Of a DNA stretch of 7,732 bases, positions 1-7,732 are shown piece after piece (position 1 is the stretch's first letter; each line of letters opens with the position of its first letter). Below the pieces are notes generated by a model. The model saw nothing but the letters and a program-made list of their open reading frames with translations. It searched no databases and was not told the origin of the DNA. The position numbers and the translations under genes were made by a program. The DNA comes from a virus (taxonomy: Duplodnaviria; Heunggongvirae; Uroviricota; Caudoviricetes). Location: the IMG/VR virus record IMGVR_UViG_2724679236_000001, positions 1 to 7,732 of that record. One strand, 5' to 3'.

Positions 1-25
1 TGCAGTGTTTATTCTGTTGTTTATG

Positions 26-53
26 CCAAAAATAAAGGCCGACTATGCGGCCT
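26..53 (-). terminator. Putative intrinsic terminator directly downstream of the 58..480 gene
   Basis: Plus strand reads aaaaataaa-GGCCG-actatg-CGGCC; on the minus strand this is a 5-6 bp GC stem with a 6-nt loop followed by a U-rich run (UUAUUUUUGG), starting a few nt after the stop codon at 58-60. Confidence 0.45.
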
Positions 54-57
54 GAAA

Positions 58-480
58 TTACTTAACCAATGATGCTGCATATTCAATTAGGAATAACTTA
101 GGTGCAAGCCAAATCTTCAACCATTCGAAATTGAAGGCAATAATTAAAACGCCAATAATTGAGCCAAATATAGGAGCAAATACAGTGCATATATCGTAAT
201 AAAACGAAGATATAAAATACCTATCGTTTGGACATCCATCTAAAGACGTCCATCTCTCGCCATTATTTCTTGCCGTTCTTGCAAAACTAGGAAGTTTCAT
301 GGCCGCAATTAAAAGCAACAACCCAGCCACTTGGAAAAGTGCGCTATGGACAAAACTCCATATTAGCAACTGACGAACAACATCAGGAATCTGTGCTTGA
401 CTAAATGAAACAGCCGCATCTATTCCATTGCTGGCTTTTTGCAGTAGTTCTACGAGAATCTTGTTTGCTTGTTCTTCCAT
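58..480 (-). CDS. Hypothetical membrane protein, 140 aa, in the leftward (PL) early operon
   Basis: Supplied ORF; ATG at 480 preceded by AGGTGA (short spacer); two long hydrophobic segments (ALFQVAGLLLLIAAM, ICTVFAPIFGSIIGVLIIAF) consistent with transmembrane helices; same strand as N and ral. No family recognised. Confidence 0.55.
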   Translation of the reverse strand: MEEQANKILVELLQKASNGIDAAVSFSQAQIPDVVRQLLIWSFVHSALFQVAGLLLLIAAMKLPSFARTARNNGERWTSLDGCPNDRYFISSFYYDICTVFAPIFGSIIGVLIIAFNFEWLKIWLAPKLFLIEYAASLVK

Positions 481-538
481 ATATCACCTTGATTGTAATA
501 AGCATGAAATTATTTACGGACAACAATAAAGGCCACCA

Positions 539-739
539 TCAGGCAGCCTTGTTATTCTGTTTACCAAGTTCTCTGGCAATCATTGCCGTCGTTCGTATTG
601 CCCATTTATCGACATATTTCCCATCCTCCATTACAGGAAACATTTCTTCAGGCTTAACCATGCATTCCGATTGCAGCTTGCATCCATTGCATCGCTTGAA
701 TTGTCCACACCATTGATTCTTATCAATAGTCGTAGTCAT
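539..739 (-). CDS. ral: Ral-like restriction-alleviation protein (66 aa, Cys-rich)
   Basis: 66-aa ORF MTTTIDKNQWCGQFKRCNGCKLQSEC... matches my recollection of lambda Ral in length, sequence and position (leftward of N in the PL operon). Identity is from memory, not from a search. Confidence 0.55.
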   Translation of the reverse strand: MTTTIDKNQWCGQFKRCNGCKLQSECMVKPEEMFPVMEDGKYVDKWAIRTTAMIARELGKQNNKAA

Positions 740-809
740 ACGGATAGTCCTGGTATTGTTCCATCACATCCTGCGGATGCTCTTCGAACTCTTCAAATTC
801 TTCTTCCAT
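723..809 (-). CDS. Tiny acidic ORF (28 aa, MEEEFEEFEEHPQDVMEQYQDYPYDYDY) overlapping the ral start by 17 nt
   Basis: Hand translation of the minus strand; ATG at 809 preceded by GAGGTGAGAT; stop at 723-725. Lambda is annotated with a comparably placed 28-codon ORF upstream of ral, as far as I recall. Below the ORF-track size cutoff. Confidence 0.3.
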   Translation of the reverse strand: MEEEFEEFEEHPQDVMEQYQDYPYDYDY

Positions 810-843
810 ATCTCACCTCAAATAAGTGGTTTGCTGCCTGAGC

Positions 844-993
844 TTATTCTGCTTTGAGCAACTTCATCGCTTCATCAATGCGTGATTGTGTCCCTGCGTT
901 TGGTTCCACTACCTGAAGGCGGCGGGCATCTTCAAGAAGTTTCGCAATCATTTCTTTAAGTGCTTCGTTATCGTTATTCATGGTCATGCTCAT
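844..993 (-). CDS. Small hypothetical ORF (49 aa, MSMTMNNDNEALKEMIAKLLEDARRLQVVEPNAGTQSRIDEAMKLLKAE)
   Basis: Hand translation; starts 31 nt downstream of the N stop on the same strand; predicted helical, charged; weak RBS. No homolog recognised. Confidence 0.3.
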   Translation of the reverse strand: MSMTMNNDNEALKEMIAKLLEDARRLQVVEPNAGTQSRIDEAMKLLKAE

Positions 994-1024
994 GTCGGTT
1001 AGTGCCCTCGTTGGCTGGGTATCG

Positions 1025-1333
1025 TCACCTTGCTGTCAGTTGTTTTGATTTCCGGTAGCCTGCCGCGTAAATGGCTACGTTTGGCAGGCAAATACTTCCA
1101 CTGCATTCGTCGGTATTTTGGTTACGAATGTTGCCGAGTGATATTGCTTTTTCAGAAAGGCTTAAACGCTTTCTCGTGCCTTTCTGAACTGGTTCCTTGC
1201 TGTCTGTTCCGAAGATCGAATCGATGATGTTGCAGATGGAATCACGCTCGATAGCCAGCTTTCTGCGCCGCTCATGACGGCGAGTTTTGGCATTTCCTGC
1301 AAATGTTGATTTTCCGTACACGATTACCGTCAT
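1025..1333 (-). CDS. N: Transcription antitermination protein N, P22 gene 24-like (102 aa)
   Basis: Contains GNAKTRRHERRRKLAIER, the arginine-rich boxB-binding motif of P22 N as I recall it; first gene downstream of PL and nutL. I place the start at ATG 1333 (GAGG 8 nt upstream) rather than the in-frame GTG at 1417 used by the ORF track. Confidence 0.8.
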   Translation of the reverse strand: MTVIVYGKSTFAGNAKTRRHERRRKLAIERDSICNIIDSIFGTDSKEPVQKGTRKRLSLSEKAISLGNIRNQNTDECSGSICLPNVAIYAAGYRKSKQLTAR

Positions 1334-1452
1334 GATGTTTTCCTCATGTGAAATGGCTTTGGTGGTGATGCGCCAGATGTTGATCTTCTGGTTGCTGTCG
1401 TTGCAGCTGCAATTCACATCACCGCCAAACCCATCTCGTTTGGTATCTGTTT

Positions 1453-1487
1453 GCGCTTTGTCAGCGCGCCATCGAAGTTAAAGAGCC
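1453..1487 (-). promoter_or_regulatory. nutL (boxA + boxB), P22-type
   Basis: Minus strand reads GCTCTTTAAC (boxA-like, plus 1477..1486), then GCGCT-GACAA-AGCGC (plus 1453..1467): a 5-bp stem with GACAA pentaloop, matching the P22 boxB as I recall it. Lies in the PL leader upstream of N. Confidence 0.7.
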
Positions 1488-1525
1488 TGCCAGTCTGTTC
1501 CGTTTGGCTGCCAGCGTCCTGCTGA

Positions 1526-1561
1526 TGTGTTTAGTATCACCGCTAGTGGTATGTGTGTCAA
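1526..1561 (-). promoter_or_regulatory. PL promoter (-35 TTGACA, -10 GATACT, 17-bp spacer)
   Basis: Reverse complement of plus 1556..1561 is TTGACA and of 1533..1538 is GATACT; hexamers overlap OL2 and OL1 as in lambda. Confidence 0.8.
1535..1551. promoter_or_regulatory. Operator OL1 (cI/Cro binding site)
   Basis: 17-mer TATCACCGCTAGTGGTA; one central-position difference from the lambda OL1 I remember (TATCACCGCCAGTGGTA). Confidence 0.8.
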
Positions 1562-1575
1562 CACCGCCAGAGATA
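1559..1575. promoter_or_regulatory. Operator OL2
   Basis: 17-mer CAACACCGCCAGAGATA, as in lambda OL2 from memory. Confidence 0.8.
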
Positions 1576-1578
1576 ATT

Positions 1579-1595
1579 TATCACCGCAGATGGTT
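1579..1595. promoter_or_regulatory. Operator OL3
   Basis: 17-mer TATCACCGCAGATGGTT, as in lambda OL3 from memory. Confidence 0.8.
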
Positions 1596-1753
1596 ATCTG
1601 TATGTTTTTTATATGGATTTATTTTTTGCAGGGGTGCATTGTTTGGTAGGTGAGGGATCAGAATTGCACTGTTTAGCAAGTTGTATCTATCAATTTTTCA
1701 ATAAATACAATTGGTTATGGTGTTATTAGGTGTGGGGATCGAGAGGCAAAGAA

Positions 1754-1775
1754 AACCCGGCACTGAGGCCGGGTT
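1754..1775 (-). terminator. Intrinsic terminator ending the cI operon (tImm-like)
   Basis: aaCCCGGC-actgag-GCCGGGtt (stem 1756..1761 / 1768..1773, extendable by two A-T pairs); on the minus strand it is followed by UUUCUUUG and begins 2 nt after the stop of the 1777..2100 gene. Confidence 0.65.
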
Positions 1776-1776
1776 G

Positions 1777-2100
1777 TTATTTATGGAAAAACACTTCAAG
1801 TATTTTGGGGATTGCTGGTATGAGTTGTGAGGATACGACCGCACCTACAACCCATAGAATTATCGAAGTTTTCGCGTCGCTTACGTCTGATTTGGTTGCA
1901 TAATTCGAGCGCATGACAGCCAGGTCGGTTTTCATTTGCTGAACATCTTTTTCGAGTTCTTTCACTCTTTGAAGCACATCATCACCTCCGCCATTGCCGC
2001 CACCATGCCGTGAGTATGCATCATCAGTTGGATAGTGTCCAATTGGGCGAGATATGTTTTGATTTGGACGAAGCTGAGTAACCTTGTTATCTAAACTCAT
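1777..2100 (-). CDS. Hypothetical small membrane protein (107 aa): Gly-rich linker, coiled-coil-like segment, single C-terminal TM helix; distal gene of the cI operon
   Basis: Supplied ORF; ATG at 2100 with AGGA upstream; overlaps the upstream gene by 14 nt; sequence shows HGGGNGGGDD, then VLQRVKELEKDVQQMKTDLAVMRSNY, then hydrophobic IILWVVGAVVSSQLIPAI. Architecture resembles XhlA-like/holin-like small membrane proteins (resemblance only). Confidence 0.6.
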   Translation of the reverse strand: MSLDNKVTQLRPNQNISRPIGHYPTDDAYSRHGGGNGGGDDVLQRVKELEKDVQQMKTDLAVMRSNYATKSDVSDAKTSIILWVVGAVVSSQLIPAIPKILEVFFHK

Positions 2101-2524
2101 CGCGAACTGATCCTGTTATCTTCACGTCAAAAAACGAACTTTTTACATCAATTACTTCGCCTTTCTCAGGATTAACCAGTGATGCTCTAACTTCGAATAT
2201 CCCAGGCTTGATAATTTTCACCCTTGGGAAGTTAATTCTCATAGAAGTTGATACGATGGTTTCTCCATCGTTGGCTTCTGCTACCGTAAAAAACTTATGG
2301 TTGGAGTACAGTTTTGTGTCAATTGGTATCGGTATTTCTTGAGCATTGAAAACCTCAATGCCTATGGAATATTTTTTTGTAGCCTTAAGGCCGATAAAAA
2401 AAGCGCCAAATGACAGATCCACTTCATGGGAGTCTTTATCCATTTCATAGATAAGAACTGGAGTTACGGGGTTGCCTTCATCCATCGCAATCGGAATGAT
2501 ATAAGAAATACGTTCTTTAATCAT
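2087..2524 (-). CDS. Hypothetical protein (145 aa) immediately downstream of cI, in the rexA-equivalent position
   Basis: Supplied ORF; ATG at 2524 is 7 nt after the cI stop on the same strand; region visibly more AT-rich than cI; no recognisable motif. Confidence 0.6.
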   Translation of the reverse strand: MIKERISYIIPIAMDEGNPVTPVLIYEMDKDSHEVDLSFGAFFIGLKATKKYSIGIEVFNAQEIPIPIDTKLYSNHKFFTVAEANDGETIVSTSMRINFPRVKIIKPGIFEVRASLVNPEKGEVIDVKSSFFDVKITGSVRDEFR

Positions 2525-2531
2525 TTACGTG

Positions 2532-3248
<717 letters not shown>

Positions 3249-3251
3249 TTA

Positions 3252-3280
3252 AATCTATCACCGCAAGGGATAAATATCTA
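3252..3280 (-). promoter_or_regulatory. PRM promoter (-35 TAGATA, -10 TAGATT on minus strand)
   Basis: Reverse complement of plus 3275..3280 is TAGATA and of 3252..3257 is TAGATT, 17-bp spacer; cI ATG at 3245 sits at the expected leaderless start. Confidence 0.8.
3256..3272. promoter_or_regulatory. Operator OR3
   Basis: 17-mer TATCACCGCAAGGGATA, as in lambda OR3 from memory. Confidence 0.85.
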
Positions 3281-3295
3281 ACACCGTGCGTGTTG
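3279..3295. promoter_or_regulatory. Operator OR2
   Basis: 17-mer TAACACCGTGCGTGTTG, as in lambda OR2 from memory. Confidence 0.85.
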
Positions 3296-3321
3296 ACTAT
3301 TTTACCTCTAGCGGTGATAAT
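3293..3321 (+). promoter_or_regulatory. PR promoter (-35 TTGACT 3293..3298, -10 GATAAT 3316..3321)
   Basis: Canonical hexamers with 17-bp spacer overlapping OR2/OR1; cro follows with AGGAGG RBS. Confidence 0.85.
3303..3319. promoter_or_regulatory. Operator OR1
   Basis: 17-mer TACCTCTAGCGGTGATA; one central-position difference from the lambda OR1 I remember (TACCTCTGGCGGTGATA). Confidence 0.85.
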
Positions 3322-3336
3322 AATTGCATGTACTAA

Positions 3337-3546
<210 letters not shown>

Positions 3547-3553
3547 GTAACAC

Positions 3554-3588
3554 CGCTCTTTATCAATCTGCACCGCCGACAACGCGGT
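3554..3588 (+). promoter_or_regulatory. nutR (boxA CGCTCTTTA + boxB hairpin with GACAA-containing loop), P22-type
   Basis: CGCTCTTTA at 3554..3562; ACCGC-CGACAAC-GCGGT at 3572..3588 (5-bp stem). Shares the GACAA loop core with nutL, consistent with the N arginine-rich motif. Not lambda-type from memory. Confidence 0.65.
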
Positions 3589-3599
3589 AACTAATTAAT

Positions 3600-3633
3600 C
3601 ACTCATCGAAAGATGAGTGTTAGTGATTATTTA
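3600..3633 (+). terminator. Stem-loop with GAAA tetraloop followed by T-rich tract (tR1-position terminator or attenuator candidate)
   Basis: CACTCATC-GAAA-GATGAGTG (3600..3619), perfect 8-bp stem, then TTAGTGATTATTTA. Alternative pairing of TAATCAC (3594..3600) with GTGATTA (3623..3629) is possible. Confidence 0.4.
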
Positions 3634-3639
3634 CCTATG

Positions 3640-3676
3640 GAAATAGTAAGAAATGGAACAAACAAGTTACAGCAAA
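3640..3676 (-). promoter_or_regulatory. Candidate PRE-like CII-activated promoter (TTGC-N6-TTGT repeat plus -10-like TACTAT)
   Basis: Minus strand reads TTGC-TGTAAC-TTGT across plus 3662..3675, inside the 5' end of the cII-like gene as in lambda; TACTAT on the minus strand at plus 3643..3648. One repeat is imperfect. Confidence 0.3.
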
Positions 3677-3952
3677 CTATCACAGCGCGACGTTGATCGC
3701 GCAGAAACAGATTTACTCATCAACCTGTCAACGCTTACCCAGCGCGGTCTGGCAAAGATGATTGGCTGTCATGAATCGAAGATAAGCAGAACGGACTGGA
3801 GATTTATTGCTTCGGTCCTGTGTGCTTTCGGAATGGCATCAGACATCAGTCCGATTAGCAGGGCTTTTAAGTATGCGCTTGATGGAATCACCAATAAAAA
3901 ACGCCCGGTGTGCAAGACCGAGCGTTCTGATCAAATACAAATGGAATTTTAA
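3653..3952 (+). CDS. cII: CII-family transcriptional activator (99 aa)
   Basis: C-terminus ITNKKRPVCKTERSDQIQMEF closely matches the lambda CII C-terminus as I recall it (ILTNKKRPAATERSEQIQMEF); the N-terminal HTH region is divergent; position after cro/nutR is canonical. Confidence 0.75.
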   Translation: MEQTSYSKLSQRDVDRAETDLLINLSTLTQRGLAKMIGCHESKISRTDWRFIASVLCAFGMASDISPISRAFKYALDGITNKKRPVCKTERSDQIQMEF

Positions 3953-3974
3953 CAACATCCAACGAGGTAATTAT

Positions 3975-4118
3975 ATGCGAAAAACGCAGGAAAATAAACG
4001 CGTTAATCACCGAAAAGATGTGCTACGTGACCAGTTTTATCAGGGGGTTAATCCAGCAATAGCTGTGCCACTGAGAGAGATACTTAACAGGTACAAAACT
4101 TCGGAGAAGTCAAAATGA
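3975..4118 (+). CDS. Small basic ORF (47 aa, MRKTQENKRVNHRKDVLRDQFYQGVNPAIAVPLREILNRYKTSEKSK) coupled to the replication initiator
   Basis: ATG at 3975 with GAGG 7 nt upstream; stop TGA 4116..4118 overlaps the ATG of the next gene (ATGA). The supplied ORF 3807..4118 is this frame extended back into cII; I take the real start as 3975. Confidence 0.4.
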   Translation: MRKTQENKRVNHRKDVLRDQFYQGVNPAIAVPLREILNRYKTSEKSK

Positions 4119-4933
4119 GCATGAATCTTATGGCTAAGGCCATGAATATAAAGGTTGGCAACCCACTGAGAAAACTGGTTCTGATTAAACTTGCCGATAA
4201 CGCCAATGATAATGGCGAATGCTGGCCTTCATATCAACATGTCGCTGACCAGTGTGAGGTGAGCAGATCGACAGTAAAAAGTCACATTAGGGCACTGGAA
4301 GAGATGGGGCTTTTGAAAAGGGAATTCAGAAGAAAAGGAGAGCTTAACCAGTCAAATGTTTTTTATCTGACATTGGATAATGCACAACAAATCCAACCAG
4401 AATCAGGTGGGGCAGGAGCTGCCCGGGGTGGGGCAGGAGCTGCCCGGGGTGGGGCAGGAGCTGCCCGGGGTGGGGCAGGAGCTGCCCTAGGGGGTGGGGC
4501 AGGAGCTGCCCCCAGAACCTATCACTCTTTTGAACCAGTCAATGAACCTAAAAACATTATGTTCGAACATGTCCGAACAGAGTGTGAAAAAACTCCTGAC
4601 CGTCACGAAGAAACCGACAAGGCATTCGAGGAAATATTCTGGTGTGCAGGCATGCGGAAAGCCGGGAAGAAAAACGCAGCTTCGGCATTCAGAACACAGT
4701 TCAGGGAATGGCGTAAAACTACCAGGGGTACGGCAAGCGAGTTTGCCACGATGCTGGCAGAAGACATCGCATGCAGGAGTGGTAAGCAGTTCGGATTCGA
4801 CAGGTTGTTACCATCTAGCTACCTGAACGGTCAACGCTGGAACGACGAGAAGCCAGAAACTATTCAACCACAATCCAAACCATCATCCGCAATCACCGTA
4901 TCGAAAACTGGCTACGTGTTTTTCGACAGGTGA
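4115..4933 (+). CDS. Replication initiator, O-like (272 aa): N-terminal winged-HTH (HTH_36-like) domain, iteron-encoded Gly/Ala-rich linker, C-terminal domain
   Basis: GGAG RBS 8 nt upstream; N-terminal LRKLVLIKLADNANDNGECWPSYQHVADQCEVSRSTVKSHIRALEEMGLL has the pattern of phage/plasmid replication-initiator HTH domains; internal tandem repeats as in lambda O; precedes a helicase gene. Not lambda O at sequence level. Confidence 0.75.
   Translation: MSMNLMAKAMNIKVGNPLRKLVLIKLADNANDNGECWPSYQHVADQCEVSRSTVKSHIRALEEMGLLKREFRRKGELNQSNVFYLTLDNAQQIQPESGGAGAARGGAGAARGGAGAARGGAGAALGGGAGAAPRTYHSFEPVNEPKNIMFEHVRTECEKTPDRHEETDKAFEEIFWCAGMRKAGKKNAASAFRTQFREWRKTTRGTASEFATMLAEDIACRSGKQFGFDRLLPSSYLNGQRWNDEKPETIQPQSKPSSAITVSKTGYVFFDR
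4406..4513. repeat. Five tandem 21-bp iterons (GGTGGGGCAGGAGCTGCCCGG) inside the initiator gene: candidate origin of replication
   Basis: Units at 4406, 4427, 4448 and 4469, with a fifth at 4493 after a 3-bp insertion; first three identical, last two with 2-bp end changes. Each unit contains the dyad GGGCAG-gag-CTGCCC; in frame the array encodes GGAGAAR repeats; an AT-rich stretch follows (about 4530..4600). Confidence 0.7.
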
Positions 4934-4936
4934 ACC

Positions 4937-5044
4937 ATGAAATCCAGAATCAAATCGTTACTTATCGCTGGCTATAACCATGGCTGGCTTAGTTCTGCAT
5001 TCGTTGAGTTCTGGTTTAACCGTCTCGATCTGAGGTCAGCGTAA
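4937..5044 (+). CDS. Possible small ORF (35 aa, MKSRIKSLLIAGYNHGWLSSAFVEFWFNRLDLRSA) between initiator and helicase
   Basis: ATG 4 nt after the initiator stop; its TAA stop overlaps the ATG of the primase-helicase (TAATG). No homolog recognised; could be chance. Confidence 0.2.
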   Translation: MKSRIKSLLIAGYNHGWLSSAFVEFWFNRLDLRSA

Positions 5045-6924
5045 TGACTCCAAGTGAACTGAGCGACCTGCTTTGGGCGCAGGTTGACAGGGTGGCTCCG
5101 CACCTGTTGCCAAACGGCAAGAAAGAGGGGCATGAGTGGGTTGCCGGTAACGTCAACGGTGACAAGGGAAACAGCCTTAAGGTCAACCTTAGCGGCAAGA
5201 AAAAATGGGCTGATTTCGCTGAGGGAGACGGCGGTGACATGCTTGATTTGTGGATGGCATGTCGTGGGATTAACCTGCATCAGGCTATGCAGGAAGCGAA
5301 AGCATTTCTCGGTATCAAGGATGACGATCACCATTTCGATGCCAAACGTGAGAAAAAATTCTCCAGACCTGATCGCAAGAAAATCGCCCGCTACGTTACC
5401 AGAACAGAATCCCATCTTGAGTACCTGCAATCGCGTGGCATATCGCCAGAAATCGTAAAGCGCTACGAGGTTGTCAGCGGCAAGGTGTGGAATGGAGAGC
5501 GGGAACTGGATGCTCTGGTGATTCCGTACAAACGCGATGGTGAGTTGTTGCAGGTCAAGCGAATCAGCACTGAGCGCCCGGACGGGAAGAAAGTCATTAT
5601 GGCAGAAGGTGATTGCGAACCTTGTCTGTTCGGATGGCAGGCTCTGGACGCTGGCGTGAGGGCGGTTGTACTTTGCGAAGGCGAAATTGATTGTATGAGC
5701 TATGCGCAATACGGCATCTCGGCGTTATCCGTGCCGTTTGGTGGCGGGAAAGGCGCTAAGCAACAGTGGATTGAGTTTGAGTATCACAACCTCGACAGGT
5801 TTGAGGAAATATTCATCTCGATGGACGTTGATGATGTTGGTCGTGAAGCCGCAAGGGAAATCGCAAGCCGACTCGGTGAACATCGTTGCCGTCTTGTTAC
5901 TCTGCCGTACAAAGACATCAACGAATGCCTGATGAACGGTGTTACCGAGGATGAAATCTGGCAGTACATCGGCACGGCATCCTACTTCGATCCTGAAGAA
6001 CTCTACAGCGCGCGAGAGTTTTACCAGGACACTATCAACGCTTTCTACGGCAAGCAGCAGTATCTGTTTAATCCACCGTGGGAATCTCTGGCAGATAAAT
6101 TCCAGTTCCGTGAGGCAGAGTTGACGCTGGTCAATGGTGTGAACGGTCACGGAAAAACGGAGGTTGTCGGGCATATGGCACTTGAGGCAATGCGTCAGGG
6201 TGTGAAGACATGCATCGCGTCACTTGAGCTGAAGCCTGGTATTCTCCTTAAGCGCCTTACCCGTCAGGCGACGTGCTGCAAGATGCCGCCAGTGCTGGAA
6301 ATTGACTCTGCATTTAAATTTTATGACGAAAGACTTTGGGTGTTTGGCCTGACCGGAACGGCGAAAGCCGACAGGCTGATCGAAATATTCGACTACGCTC
6401 GCCGCCGATACGGGATCCAGTTATTCATCATCGACAGCCTGATGAAATGTGGCATAGGCGACGATGACTATAACGGGCAGAAGGCGTTTGTTGACTCGAT
6501 TTGCGACTTCAAAAACAAAACAAACTCCCACGTCATTCTCGTTACTCACTCGCGAAAAGGAGACAGCGAAGAAAAACCAACCGGGAAAATGGACGTAAAA
6601 GGCTCTGGAGCGATAACAGACCTGACAGACAACCTTTTTATCATCTGGCGTAACAAGGCTCGCGAGAGAGCGTTACAGAGAGTTCAGAGTGGTGAAAAGA
6701 TGTCAGAGAAGGACGAACAGCTACTGGCATCTCCTGCATCTGTTTTGATGCTTGAAAAACAACGTAACGGCGAAGGTTGGGAAGGTGGTGTCCCGTTGTT
6801 CCTTGACGAGCAATCGCACCAGTTCCTGCAACTTGAATCAGGATCGCCATATAGCTACATCGCCAATATGCCGAAATCGGAATATGACGAGGCGTGGCGA
6901 CAGGAAAACGTGACGGAGTATTAA
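5044..6924 (+). CDS. Bifunctional replicative primase-helicase (626 aa): toprim primase domain fused to DnaB-like (RecA-fold) helicase domain
   Basis: Toprim motifs CEGEID (5674..5691) and DVDDVG (5824..5841); Walker A GVNGHGKT (6136..6159); Walker B-like LFIIDS; DnaB-like KGSGAITDLTDNLFII and EKQRNG. N-terminus has the spacing of a DnaG zinc ribbon but without the cysteines. Confidence 0.8.
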   Translation: MTPSELSDLLWAQVDRVAPHLLPNGKKEGHEWVAGNVNGDKGNSLKVNLSGKKKWADFAEGDGGDMLDLWMACRGINLHQAMQEAKAFLGIKDDDHHFDAKREKKFSRPDRKKIARYVTRTESHLEYLQSRGISPEIVKRYEVVSGKVWNGERELDALVIPYKRDGELLQVKRISTERPDGKKVIMAEGDCEPCLFGWQALDAGVRAVVLCEGEIDCMSYAQYGISALSVPFGGGKGAKQQWIEFEYHNLDRFEEIFISMDVDDVGREAAREIASRLGEHRCRLVTLPYKDINECLMNGVTEDEIWQYIGTASYFDPEELYSAREFYQDTINAFYGKQQYLFNPPWESLADKFQFREAELTLVNGVNGHGKTEVVGHMALEAMRQGVKTCIASLELKPGILLKRLTRQATCCKMPPVLEIDSAFKFYDERLWVFGLTGTAKADRLIEIFDYARRRYGIQLFIIDSLMKCGIGDDDYNGQKAFVDSICDFKNKTNSHVILVTHSRKGDSEEKPTGKMDVKGSGAITDLTDNLFIIWRNKARERALQRVQSGEKMSEKDEQLLASPASVLMLEKQRNGEGWEGGVPLFLDEQSHQFLQLESGSPYSYIANMPKSEYDEAWRQENVTEY

Positions 6925-7194
6925 ATGAATAAAAAACAATTAGCCATTCTCGAAAAGGCATGGGATGCACAAATATCATGCGCTTTGAAAGAACAGGCAC
7001 TACCAATAATCCAGACCAAATCGAAAATAGCCAGGCAGTTATGCGATGGCGGATTCCTGAACGAAGTTGAGATTACGCGCCAGATGGTAACGTTTAAAGG
7101 GTATGAGATAAATCATCATGGTATAGCGGCGTATTGCTCCCATCTTCCTAATGACGTTGACATTGATGAAATGGAAAGGGAGATGAAGCAATGA
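6925..7194 (+). CDS. Hypothetical protein (89 aa) in the ren-equivalent position
   Basis: Supplied ORF; ATG immediately after the helicase stop, GGAG 8 nt upstream; no similarity to lambda Ren recognised. Confidence 0.55.
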   Translation: MNKKQLAILEKAWDAQISCALKEQALPIIQTKSKIARQLCDGGFLNEVEITRQMVTFKGYEINHHGIAAYCSHLPNDVDIDEMEREMKQ

Positions 7195-7220
7195 CCATCT
7201 ACATCACTGAGCTAATAACA

Positions 7221-7250
7221 GGTCTGCAGGTAATCGCAGGCCTTTTTATT
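7221..7250 (+). terminator. Putative intrinsic terminator (tR2-position)
   Basis: GGTCTGC-aggtaatc-GCAGGCC (7-bp stem with one G-U pair) followed by TTTTTATTT; lies between the replication genes and the nin region, where lambda has tR2. Confidence 0.45.
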
Positions 7251-7266
7251 TGGGGGAGAGTAAATC

Positions 7267-7473
7267 GTGGTTGAGTTGATTTTCTCTGCATTGAGGCTTC
7301 TCGGTGCTATGTGGATGGTGGCGACGTTCATTGTAGTTGCTGGCTGTTTTGTCCGGTTGGTAGGCGAAGGTAAAGACCTGGTTGGTGTGCTTTTCGGTAG
7401 CATTTTCCTGTGGGTGATTATCGGTGTTATGCCTGTTGTCGTAGCAAAAGTGGCGTGGCGTTTTGTGAGTTGA
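7267..7473 (+). CDS. Small hydrophobic protein (68 aa, two predicted TM helices)
   Basis: GTG start at 7267 with strong SD GGGGGAGAG 6 nt upstream; MVELIFSALRLLGAMWMVATFIVVAGCFV and LVGVLFGSIFLWVIIGVMPVVVA form two hydrophobic helices separated by a short polar turn; stop overlaps the ninB RBS. Confidence 0.55.
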   Translation: MVELIFSALRLLGAMWMVATFIVVAGCFVRLVGEGKDLVGVLFGSIFLWVIIGVMPVVVAKVAWRFVS

Positions 7474-7480
7474 GGTAACG

Positions 7481-7732
7481 ATGAAGCAAATATACATGCT
7501 TCGCAACGAAGCAATCAGAAACAATGCCATAGACGCAATACTCTCACTTTCGATCGACGACAAGTCACCTCACGAAGTCCACATTAAAGAACCAAAGCGG
7601 AGCAATCCTCAAAACCGCCTTATGTGGGCGTTATTGCAGGACGTATCGCGTCAGGTGCTTTGGCATGGACAGAGACTTGCGCCGGAGGACTGGAAAGACC
7701 TGTTCACTGCCCTGTGGCTTAAGACCAAAAAA
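7481..7732 (+). CDS. ninB: NinB/Orf-family recombination protein, 5' partial (runs off the window)
   Basis: Hand translation MKQIYMLRNEAIRNNAIDAILSLSIDDKSPHEVHIKEPKRSNPQNRLMWALLQDVSRQVLWHGQRLAPEDWKDLFTALWLKTKK shares the QNR-L-W-DVSRQV-WHG core with lambda NinB as I recall it; GAGG RBS 7 nt upstream. Absent from the ORF track because no stop lies in the window. Confidence 0.75.
   Translation, partial: MKQIYMLRNEAIRNNAIDAILSLSIDDKSPHEVHIKEPKRSNPQNRLMWALLQDVSRQVLWHGQRLAPEDWKDLFTALWLKTKK

Follow-up and report, generated by a model that had tools for sequence, protein, structure and literature searches.

What stands in the place of rexA and rexB behind this lambda-type repressor, and what could it do for the lysogen? 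The question is raised by a stretch of 7,732 nucleotides (positions 1 to 7,732 of the IMG/VR virus record IMGVR_UViG_2724679236_000001, a member of the Caudoviricetes; the whole stretch is called the window here), which covers the immunity region of a lambdoid prophage together with its early-replication region. A sequence-only reading had pointed to two overlapping genes, coding for proteins of 145 and 107 amino acids (aa), between the cI stop and an intrinsic terminator, and had proposed them as a candidate phage-exclusion system in the rexAB slot. The layout is as described: both open reading frames (ORFs) lie on the cI strand and overlap by 14 nt (2087-2100), 7 nt separate the cI stop from the ATG of the 145-aa gene, and a strong hairpin with a T-run (1775..1754) adjoins the stop of the 107-aa gene (Table 1). 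By comparison across genomes, the pair is a conserved mobile moron, a self-contained accessory unit, and its position and architecture make it probably an uncharacterized new anti-phage module. An exclusion-type cassette on a repressor transcript belongs to an already well-known kind; the literature that we searched contains no description of the proteins of this cassette, of their pairing, or of their plug-in design.

The substitution of rexAB can be drawn very precisely. DNA homology to lambda covers only window positions 1514-1781 (PL, OL1-3, and the terminator that in lambda is downstream of rexB) and 2536-3400 (cI, OR, and cro), and the window DNA between 1781 and 2536 gave no alignment to lambda. 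Since the homology ends on either side, the 754 bp at 1782-2535 sit exactly in place of lambda rexA-rexB, with OR/PRM, cI, the terminator, and PL/OL kept from lambda and the terminator stem common to both. These mosaic limits indicate a separate acquisition of the cassette far better than AT-richness, from which the sequence-only reading had drawn the same conclusion. The higher AT content holds for the 145-aa gene (37.9% GC) and fails for the 107-aa gene (43.2%, against 43.8% in cI; the window has 45.7%). We judged this signal, modest and confined to one gene, to be weak evidence of acquisition and used the mosaic limits instead. The interval between cI and N is a recognized mosaic hotspot, home to rexAB and bstA (PMC8585504, citing Degnan 2007), and other cargo occupies the same slot in the lambda-immunity phages HK97, HK544, HK542, HK244, CL707, ev099, and PhiR5_2.

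Expression together with cI from PRM, also part of the earlier proposal, is soundly deduced, because the cassette lies in the rexAB slot downstream of an OR/PRM region that is 98% identical to that of lambda. We expect cI and the cassette to be transcribed together from PRM (and PRE) and the two cassette genes to be translationally coupled. No minus-strand promoter-like site was found between cI and the cassette start, and no minus-strand terminator between cI and PL besides that at 1775..1754. Two minus-strand promoter-like sites, inside cI (2678..2649) and inside the small gene (2041..2013), are weak 9/12 matches at chance level.

Neither cassette protein has a match in Pfam, NCBIfam, or PADLOC, and profile searches of both, extended with diverse relatives, led to no family; against PADLOC-DB 2.0.0, the two window proteins had zero matches at an E value of ≤1, and a PHROGs scan returned only families of function unknown. 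The 145-aa protein, described from the beginning as having no recognizable motif, was modeled with good confidence as an eight-stranded beta-sandwich (pLDDT 86.7, pTM 0.82); it carries no leader peptide and is predicted to be a cytoplasmic Ig-like beta-sandwich, which is an addition of the present work. A PDB sequence search with the profile of this partner protein gave nothing significant. Its superfamily is small, amounting to 117 clusters (50% identity, E ≤ 1e-3) among 1.84 billion representatives, nearly all of them stand-alone proteins of 130 to 150 aa, and none of the 117 clusters has a Pfam family. Almost no residues are invariant across the superfamily (P22, G108, and F132) and no catalytic motif was found in it, as expected of a binding module. 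Both cassette genes are real, since full-length homologues exist down to 44% identity and the ratio of nonsynonymous to synonymous substitution rates (dN/dS) is 0.07 to 0.16 for the partner and 0.17 to 0.34 for the small protein.

The 107-aa protein has all the parts that had been read from its sequence, a Gly-rich linker (G33-G39), a coiled coil, and one C-terminal transmembrane (TM) helix. The 19-residue Kyte-Doolittle (KD19) maximum is 1.96, at residues 79-97, within a single hydrophobic segment (79-101), so the description of the cassette as a soluble protein paired with a small membrane protein stands. The protein falls in phrog_6324/6136 (function unknown) and has 89 homologous clusters, whose conserved helix follows the consensus DDxLQRVKxLExDVxxxKTDxAVxxSNYATKxDV. 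The best PDB matches of the family profile were the GCN4-MATKDDIAN beta-layer constructs 5apx/5apz/5apw, with E values of 6.5e-5 to 3e-4 against the T9/T6/Tcar0761 constructs. In trimeric coiled coils, the motif [aliphatic]-A-T-K-[polar]-[DE] gives rise to beta-layers, and it is a hallmark of DUF1640 membrane proteins (PMC4786415). In the window, the motif reads Y-A-T-K-S-D, with an aromatic first position instead of the aliphatic one of the definition. The small protein is comparable to the DUF1640/CCDC90 (MCUR1) proteins, as both have a coiled-coil stalk with an x-A-T-K-x-[DE] motif, a candidate beta-layer in the small protein, beside a C-terminal membrane helix, and one E. coli relative is annotated as a "CCDC90 family protein." Unlike them, however, it has no Pfam DUF1640 match at E ≤ 1, bears Tyr in front of A-T-K, and is much shorter; to our knowledge, neither an N-terminal tail of this type nor a partner has been found for DUF1640/CCDC90 proteins. 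From these sequence features, the small protein is likely a trimeric, tail-anchored stalk.

The same pair recurs at many other loci. Relatives of the small protein turned up at 80 loci in a scan of viral contigs; at 69 of these, the small gene is preceded by a gene of 100 to 160 aa with a gap of -41 to +5 nt, and a zinc-ribbon partner appears in 7 more once over-extended ORF starts are allowed for, which brings the total to about 76 of 80. The partners belong to two unrelated classes: a divergent superfamily of the 145-aa protein, linked transitively by BLASTP (48 loci; phrog_5893/5881), and zinc-ribbon proteins of about 120 aa with a CxxC...CxxC pattern (19 + 7 loci; phrog_4293). Of 61 loci, 28 have a Peptidase_S24 repressor just upstream of the pair, and other helix-turn-helix (HTH), CI, Arc, Mnt, or antirepressor genes are frequent in that place. 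At least 29 of 57 distinct loci have a divergent small (cro-like) gene together with a repressor-sized gene. Salmonella phage epsilon34 codes for the same pair (gp45 and gp44) behind a different repressor. In 43 of 62 distinct loci, copies in baseplate clusters included, a strong terminator follows the small gene at a distance of no more than about 70 nt.

Some copies sit inside tail gene clusters, one of them flanked by a baseplate hub and the spike/gpW/gpJ genes, another with antirepressors on one side and a lipoprotein and tape measure on the other, so the cassette is not tied to the rexAB slot. No convincing plus-strand promoter of their own was found upstream of the tail-cluster copies. 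As a moron would, the pair stands at sites that commonly house genes expressed in the lysogen. HK97 gp15 is a phage moron, and the pair is like such morons in being a self-contained accessory unit that has its own 3' terminator and occupies several unrelated positions, tail clusters among them; it differs from gp15 in that there is no sequence relation and that the cassette of the window relies on the cI promoters.

A few details of these loci may be recorded separately. The terminator after the small gene is often near-identical across loci (AACCCGGCC...GCCGGGTT), for example in L008, L013, L020, L067, and window 1754-1775; because nearly the same sequence is found despite different partners and repressors, the terminator seems to travel with the unit or to mark a favored junction. 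The two baseplate copies have a terminator behind them in the middle of the expected late operon. Loci L054 (1113-1560) and L055 (478-1024) contain tandem pairs of short relatives of the small protein (77 and 64 aa in L054) that begin at the coiled coil and have no N-terminal tail, Gly linker, or partner gene.

Within the small protein, the Gly linker separates a half that follows the partner from a half that does not. Partner similarity correlates with similarity of the N-terminal tail (Spearman 0.50, Mantel p 5e-4), compared with 0.125 for the C-terminal coiled-coil/TM part. The same partner and tail are found with at least four different C-terminal modules, the break being at the linker; at least four interchangeable TM types exist in the small-protein family, and the coiled coil plus TM helix of the window type is likewise seen beside zinc-ribbon partners and beside many partner subfamilies. 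In E. coli, the commoner cassette form, which the prophages of E2348/69 and UMNF18 carry with the same partner, captures this exchange at the DNA level: homology to the window runs from 3400 down to 1984, the last codon of the Gly linker, and resumes at 1777, with 98 to 100% identity over the shared stretch. Its small protein has 123 aa, with tail and linker identical to those of the window, followed by an XhlA-like coiled coil and membrane helix (P0085, from E2348/69, is identical up through GGGNGGG and divergent beyond). As partner and tail co-vary, the tail can be regarded as a putative docking peptide for the partner, and the linker as a probable hinge and recombination joint. The N terminus of the small protein would then be cytoplasmic, given that the partner presumed to dock on it has no export signal.

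The XhlA-like half of the commoner form brings up a role in the lytic cycle, with the small protein as an XhlA-like holin accessory and the partner as its regulator. XhlA (PF10779) of the Bacillus PBSX lysis cassette resembles the small protein in size (about 70 to 120 aa) and in joining a coiled coil to one membrane helix at the C-terminal end. Hemolysin XhlA is also the name that NCBI or UniRef gives to some relatives, and there is a faint match to phrog_1193, "hemolysin." The profile similarity, however, is weak and limited to some relatives (21.6 bits for P0085 and 19.8 bits for a relative at locus L070), with all tested matches under the Pfam cutoff of 34.7 bits, and for the window protein itself no match to XhlA came up at E ≤ 1. 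The usual location of the pair is a repressor transcript closed by a terminator rather than a lysis cassette, and in the window PL/OL lie downstream of that terminator, which places the cassette on the repressor-strand transcript, outside the PL operon and apart from the late genes. We consider a lysis function very improbable.

Position and pairing invite a closer comparison with lambda RexAB. The slot is identical (from the cI stop to the same terminator, upstream of PL/OL, on the cI strand), and both are two-gene units of a soluble protein followed by a membrane protein, presumably transcribed from PRM. The cassette proteins nevertheless have no sequence, profile, or fold relation to RexA and RexB, and the dimensions differ: 279 and 144 aa in the lambda annotation against 145 and 107 aa, in a region of about 1.4 kb against 754 bp. 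RexB has four membrane helices, whereas the 107-aa protein is single-pass, with one hydrophobic segment. The label Rex-like, as used in the sequence-only reading, thus holds for the slot and the type of pair, which is also found behind several repressor types among the approximately 80 loci, and does not extend to homology. BstA of the Salmonella prophage BTP1 likewise lies directly downstream of the repressor, apparently under a shared promoter and followed by a terminator, and occurs behind diverse prophage repressors (PMC8585504). The cassette occupies this same post-repressor position, but BstA is a single protein, described as localizing to phage DNA replication sites (PMC8585504), while the cassette codes for two proteins without similarity to it (no PADLOC match). 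The exclusion genes olg1/olg2 of Fc02 were considered as a counterpart and set aside for their different architecture.

An anti-phage module fits these observations best, because it accounts for a location on the transcript of the repressor, the precise replacement of rexAB, the moron-like distribution, and the exchangeable binding subunits on a common membrane component. Its form is a more tentative matter. We propose, as a possibility that we hold with some reserve, a lysogen-expressed abortive-infection module made of a sensor and a membrane effector. In such a scheme, the cassette would be transcribed with cI from PRM in the lysogen and its genes translated in a coupled manner. The small protein would be tail-anchored in the inner membrane and trimerize through its beta-layer coiled coil, and its short variable N-terminal tail, borne on the Gly linker, would dock the cytoplasmic beta-sandwich. 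The partner would be the specificity subunit; recognition of a component of an infecting phage would alter its hold on the tail, after which the membrane-anchored trimer would disturb the inner membrane and stop the infection at the cost of the cell. The overall working would be RexAB-like, with no relation to RexAB itself. Extended to all loci, the proposal becomes more doubtful: a widespread modular prophage immune family, with this cassette as the first member to be described, in which sensors, either Ig-like beta-sandwiches or zinc ribbons, may plug via a cognate N-tail peptide and Gly hinge into a common trimeric, tail-anchored alpha/beta coiled-coil effector with an exchangeable membrane helix.

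Several results weigh against this proposal. We found no published experiment or paper on the cassette family, the accession numbers of which are absent from the papers searched and from the DefensePredictor supplements, and PADLOC gave only noise for 10 diverse family members and zero matches for the window proteins. A genome-wide scan, whose 33 loci are mostly distant coiled-coil relatives with no partner (for example, in Xenorhabdus tail-like clusters), revealed no link to defense islands. The partner in its close subfamily is under ordinary purifying selection (dN/dS 0.07-0.16), with no arms-race diversification at that scale. The AF2 monomer model of the 107-aa protein, a helix over residues 40-105, is of low confidence (pLDDT 57.7), one helix per chain is little from which to build a pore, and a membrane helix that is swapped among unrelated types suits a plain anchor as well as an effector.

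This last point leads to a close rival of abortive infection, which we rate as rather unlikely, namely, a non-lethal superinfection exclusion in which the trimeric tail-anchored protein tethers three binding proteins at the cytoplasmic face of the inner membrane and the cell survives. The tethered binders would catch either the DNA-entry machinery or a phage protein after its ejection, or would keep a late structural protein sequestered. Position and family evidence serve this explanation equally; interchangeable membrane helices and a flexible Gly linker are what an anchor and a tether call for, the partner resembles a pure binding fold, and some copies of the pair adjoin tape-measure or baseplate genes, as does the exclusion moron gp15 of HK97. 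If tethering sufficed, however, a fused polypeptide would be simpler, yet the genes are separate in about 76 of 80 loci, and conservation of the coiled-coil core goes far beyond the needs of a passive spacer.

Expression with cI implies usefulness to the lysogen without telling its kind, and a role in lysogenic conversion or prophage maintenance that is not directed against phages must be weighed too. It could consist of modulation of the host envelope, control of induction (of which 434 Hex, adjoining cI, is an example), or a toxin-antitoxin-like addiction pair in which the partner is the antidote to a membrane toxin. The order of a small soluble gene and then a small membrane gene, with coupled translation, recalls antitoxin-toxin operons, and members of the family occur only in prophages and viral contigs. 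A fixed host target, on the other hand, would hardly explain why there are two unrelated partner folds and why tail/partner units are freely exchanged, and post-repressor slots and tail-cluster morons are best known for exclusion genes. We regard this role as unlikely.

As regards distribution, a prophage of E. coli LR-60 matches window 1700-2531, the cassette region, at 99.6% identity. This prophage is not simply the source, because it has different replication genes rightward of the immunity region. About 16 of 5,426 complete E. coli genomes contain the partner gene, among them the enteropathogenic E. coli (EPEC) strain E2348/69, and only two have the exact variant of the window. E. coli EPSSH018 is a further lysogen with the cassette, and proteins of the pair are recorded under WP_000588959, WP_001560903, WP_000588958, and WP_000050903. 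Relatives of the small protein extend across Enterobacterales and occur in Burkholderiales and other Proteobacteria, and the only isolated phages found by tblastn to carry it are epsilon34, g341c, and NM-3.

The rest of the window follows the lambdoid plan (Table 1). OR1 reads TACCTCTAGCGGTGATA, with a G-to-A change with respect to lambda at window 3310, and at 3322-3323, just past the PR -10 hexamer, GG is replaced by AA; the remainder of OR is identical. The N_peptide profile covers residues 29-130 of the N ORF, and the true start of N is probably the ATG at residue 28 (MTVIVYGK...). The 140-aa protein in the PL operon has no match in Pfam and is possibly another accessory membrane protein. 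To the right of cro, the O-like gene (4115-4933), HTH_36 replication-initiator-like, contains a 21-bp unit repeated 4.9 times at 4406-4511 (96% match) that encodes GGAGAAR repeats; these may be origin iterons inside the initiator gene, as in lambda O. At the position of lambda P (5044-6924, plus strand) is a 626-aa protein with Toprim_2 fused to an AAA_25/DnaB_C-like domain. This fusion is replaced in the closely related LR-60 prophage by a separate "hypothetical" gene and a DnaB-like helicase, so the replication module is also mosaic.

Table 1. Features of the window and of related loci (positions are those of the window unless a locus is named).
Feature	Position	Strand	Remarks
140-aa protein	58-480	minus	PL operon, downstream of ral; hydrophobic stretches; phrog_3054 (function unknown)
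Ral	539-739	minus	
N antiterminator	1025-1417	minus	ORF listed from GTG, 130 aa
PL promoter and OL operators	1533..1600	minus	TTGACA-17-GATACT at 1561..1533; lambda alignment; border of the next (lytic) operon
Intrinsic terminator	1754-1775	minus	8-bp stem, 6 GC pairs, T-run; aligned to lambda
107-aa small membrane protein gene	1777-2100	minus	ORF; start overlaps partner stop
C-terminal TM helix IILWVVGAVVSSQLIPAIPKIL	1798..1863	minus	codons 80-101, then 6-residue tail
Conserved coiled coil	1864..1983	minus	codons 40-79; invariant R45, L49, E50, D59, A61; near-invariant K70, D72
Candidate beta-layer motif Y67-A-T-K-S-D72	1885-1902	minus	inside coiled coil; nearly invariant in family
Gly-rich linker GGGNGGG (G33-G39)	1984..2004	minus	codons 33-39; putative recombination joint, N-tail versus coiled-coil/TM part
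N-terminal tail, variable	2005..2100	minus	codons 1-32; alignment; co-varies with partner
145-aa partner gene	2087-2524	minus	ORF; predicted all-beta Ig-like sandwich
cI, 237 aa, lambda immunity type	2532..3245	minus	Peptidase_S24 (E 5e-28) and HTH_3; about 92% nt identity to lambda cI; presumed to open the lysogenic transcript
OR1-OR3 with PR and PRM	3246..3345		aligned to lambda 37931-38045, 98% identical; PR hexamers at 3293-3321
cro	3346-3546	plus	
CII-family gene, O-like initiator, Toprim/DnaB-like primase-helicase	rightward of cro	plus	
Commoner E. coli cassette form, small gene	L083 3246-3617; L084 3081-3452		E. coli E2348/69 (L083); UMNF18 (L084)
Pair copies inside tail gene clusters	L021 3634-4273; L063 3466-4219; L070 3597-4252		

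The mechanism of RexAB is still poorly understood after about 60 years (PMC8585504), and for this reason an unrelated and much smaller pair found in exactly that slot offers a useful natural comparison. If the cassette is an immune module, it would be a compact system of sensor plus membrane effector, of only 252 aa in total, and its plug-in design would ease the mapping of specificity; in the modular family proposed above, the codons of the Gly linker would be the recombination joint at which specificity and effector are reshuffled. It would also give a function to the PHROG families 5893, 5881, 4293, 6324, and 6136, and the beta-layer coiled-coil membrane architecture, which is known from DUF1640/MCUR1, would gain a role in bacteria.

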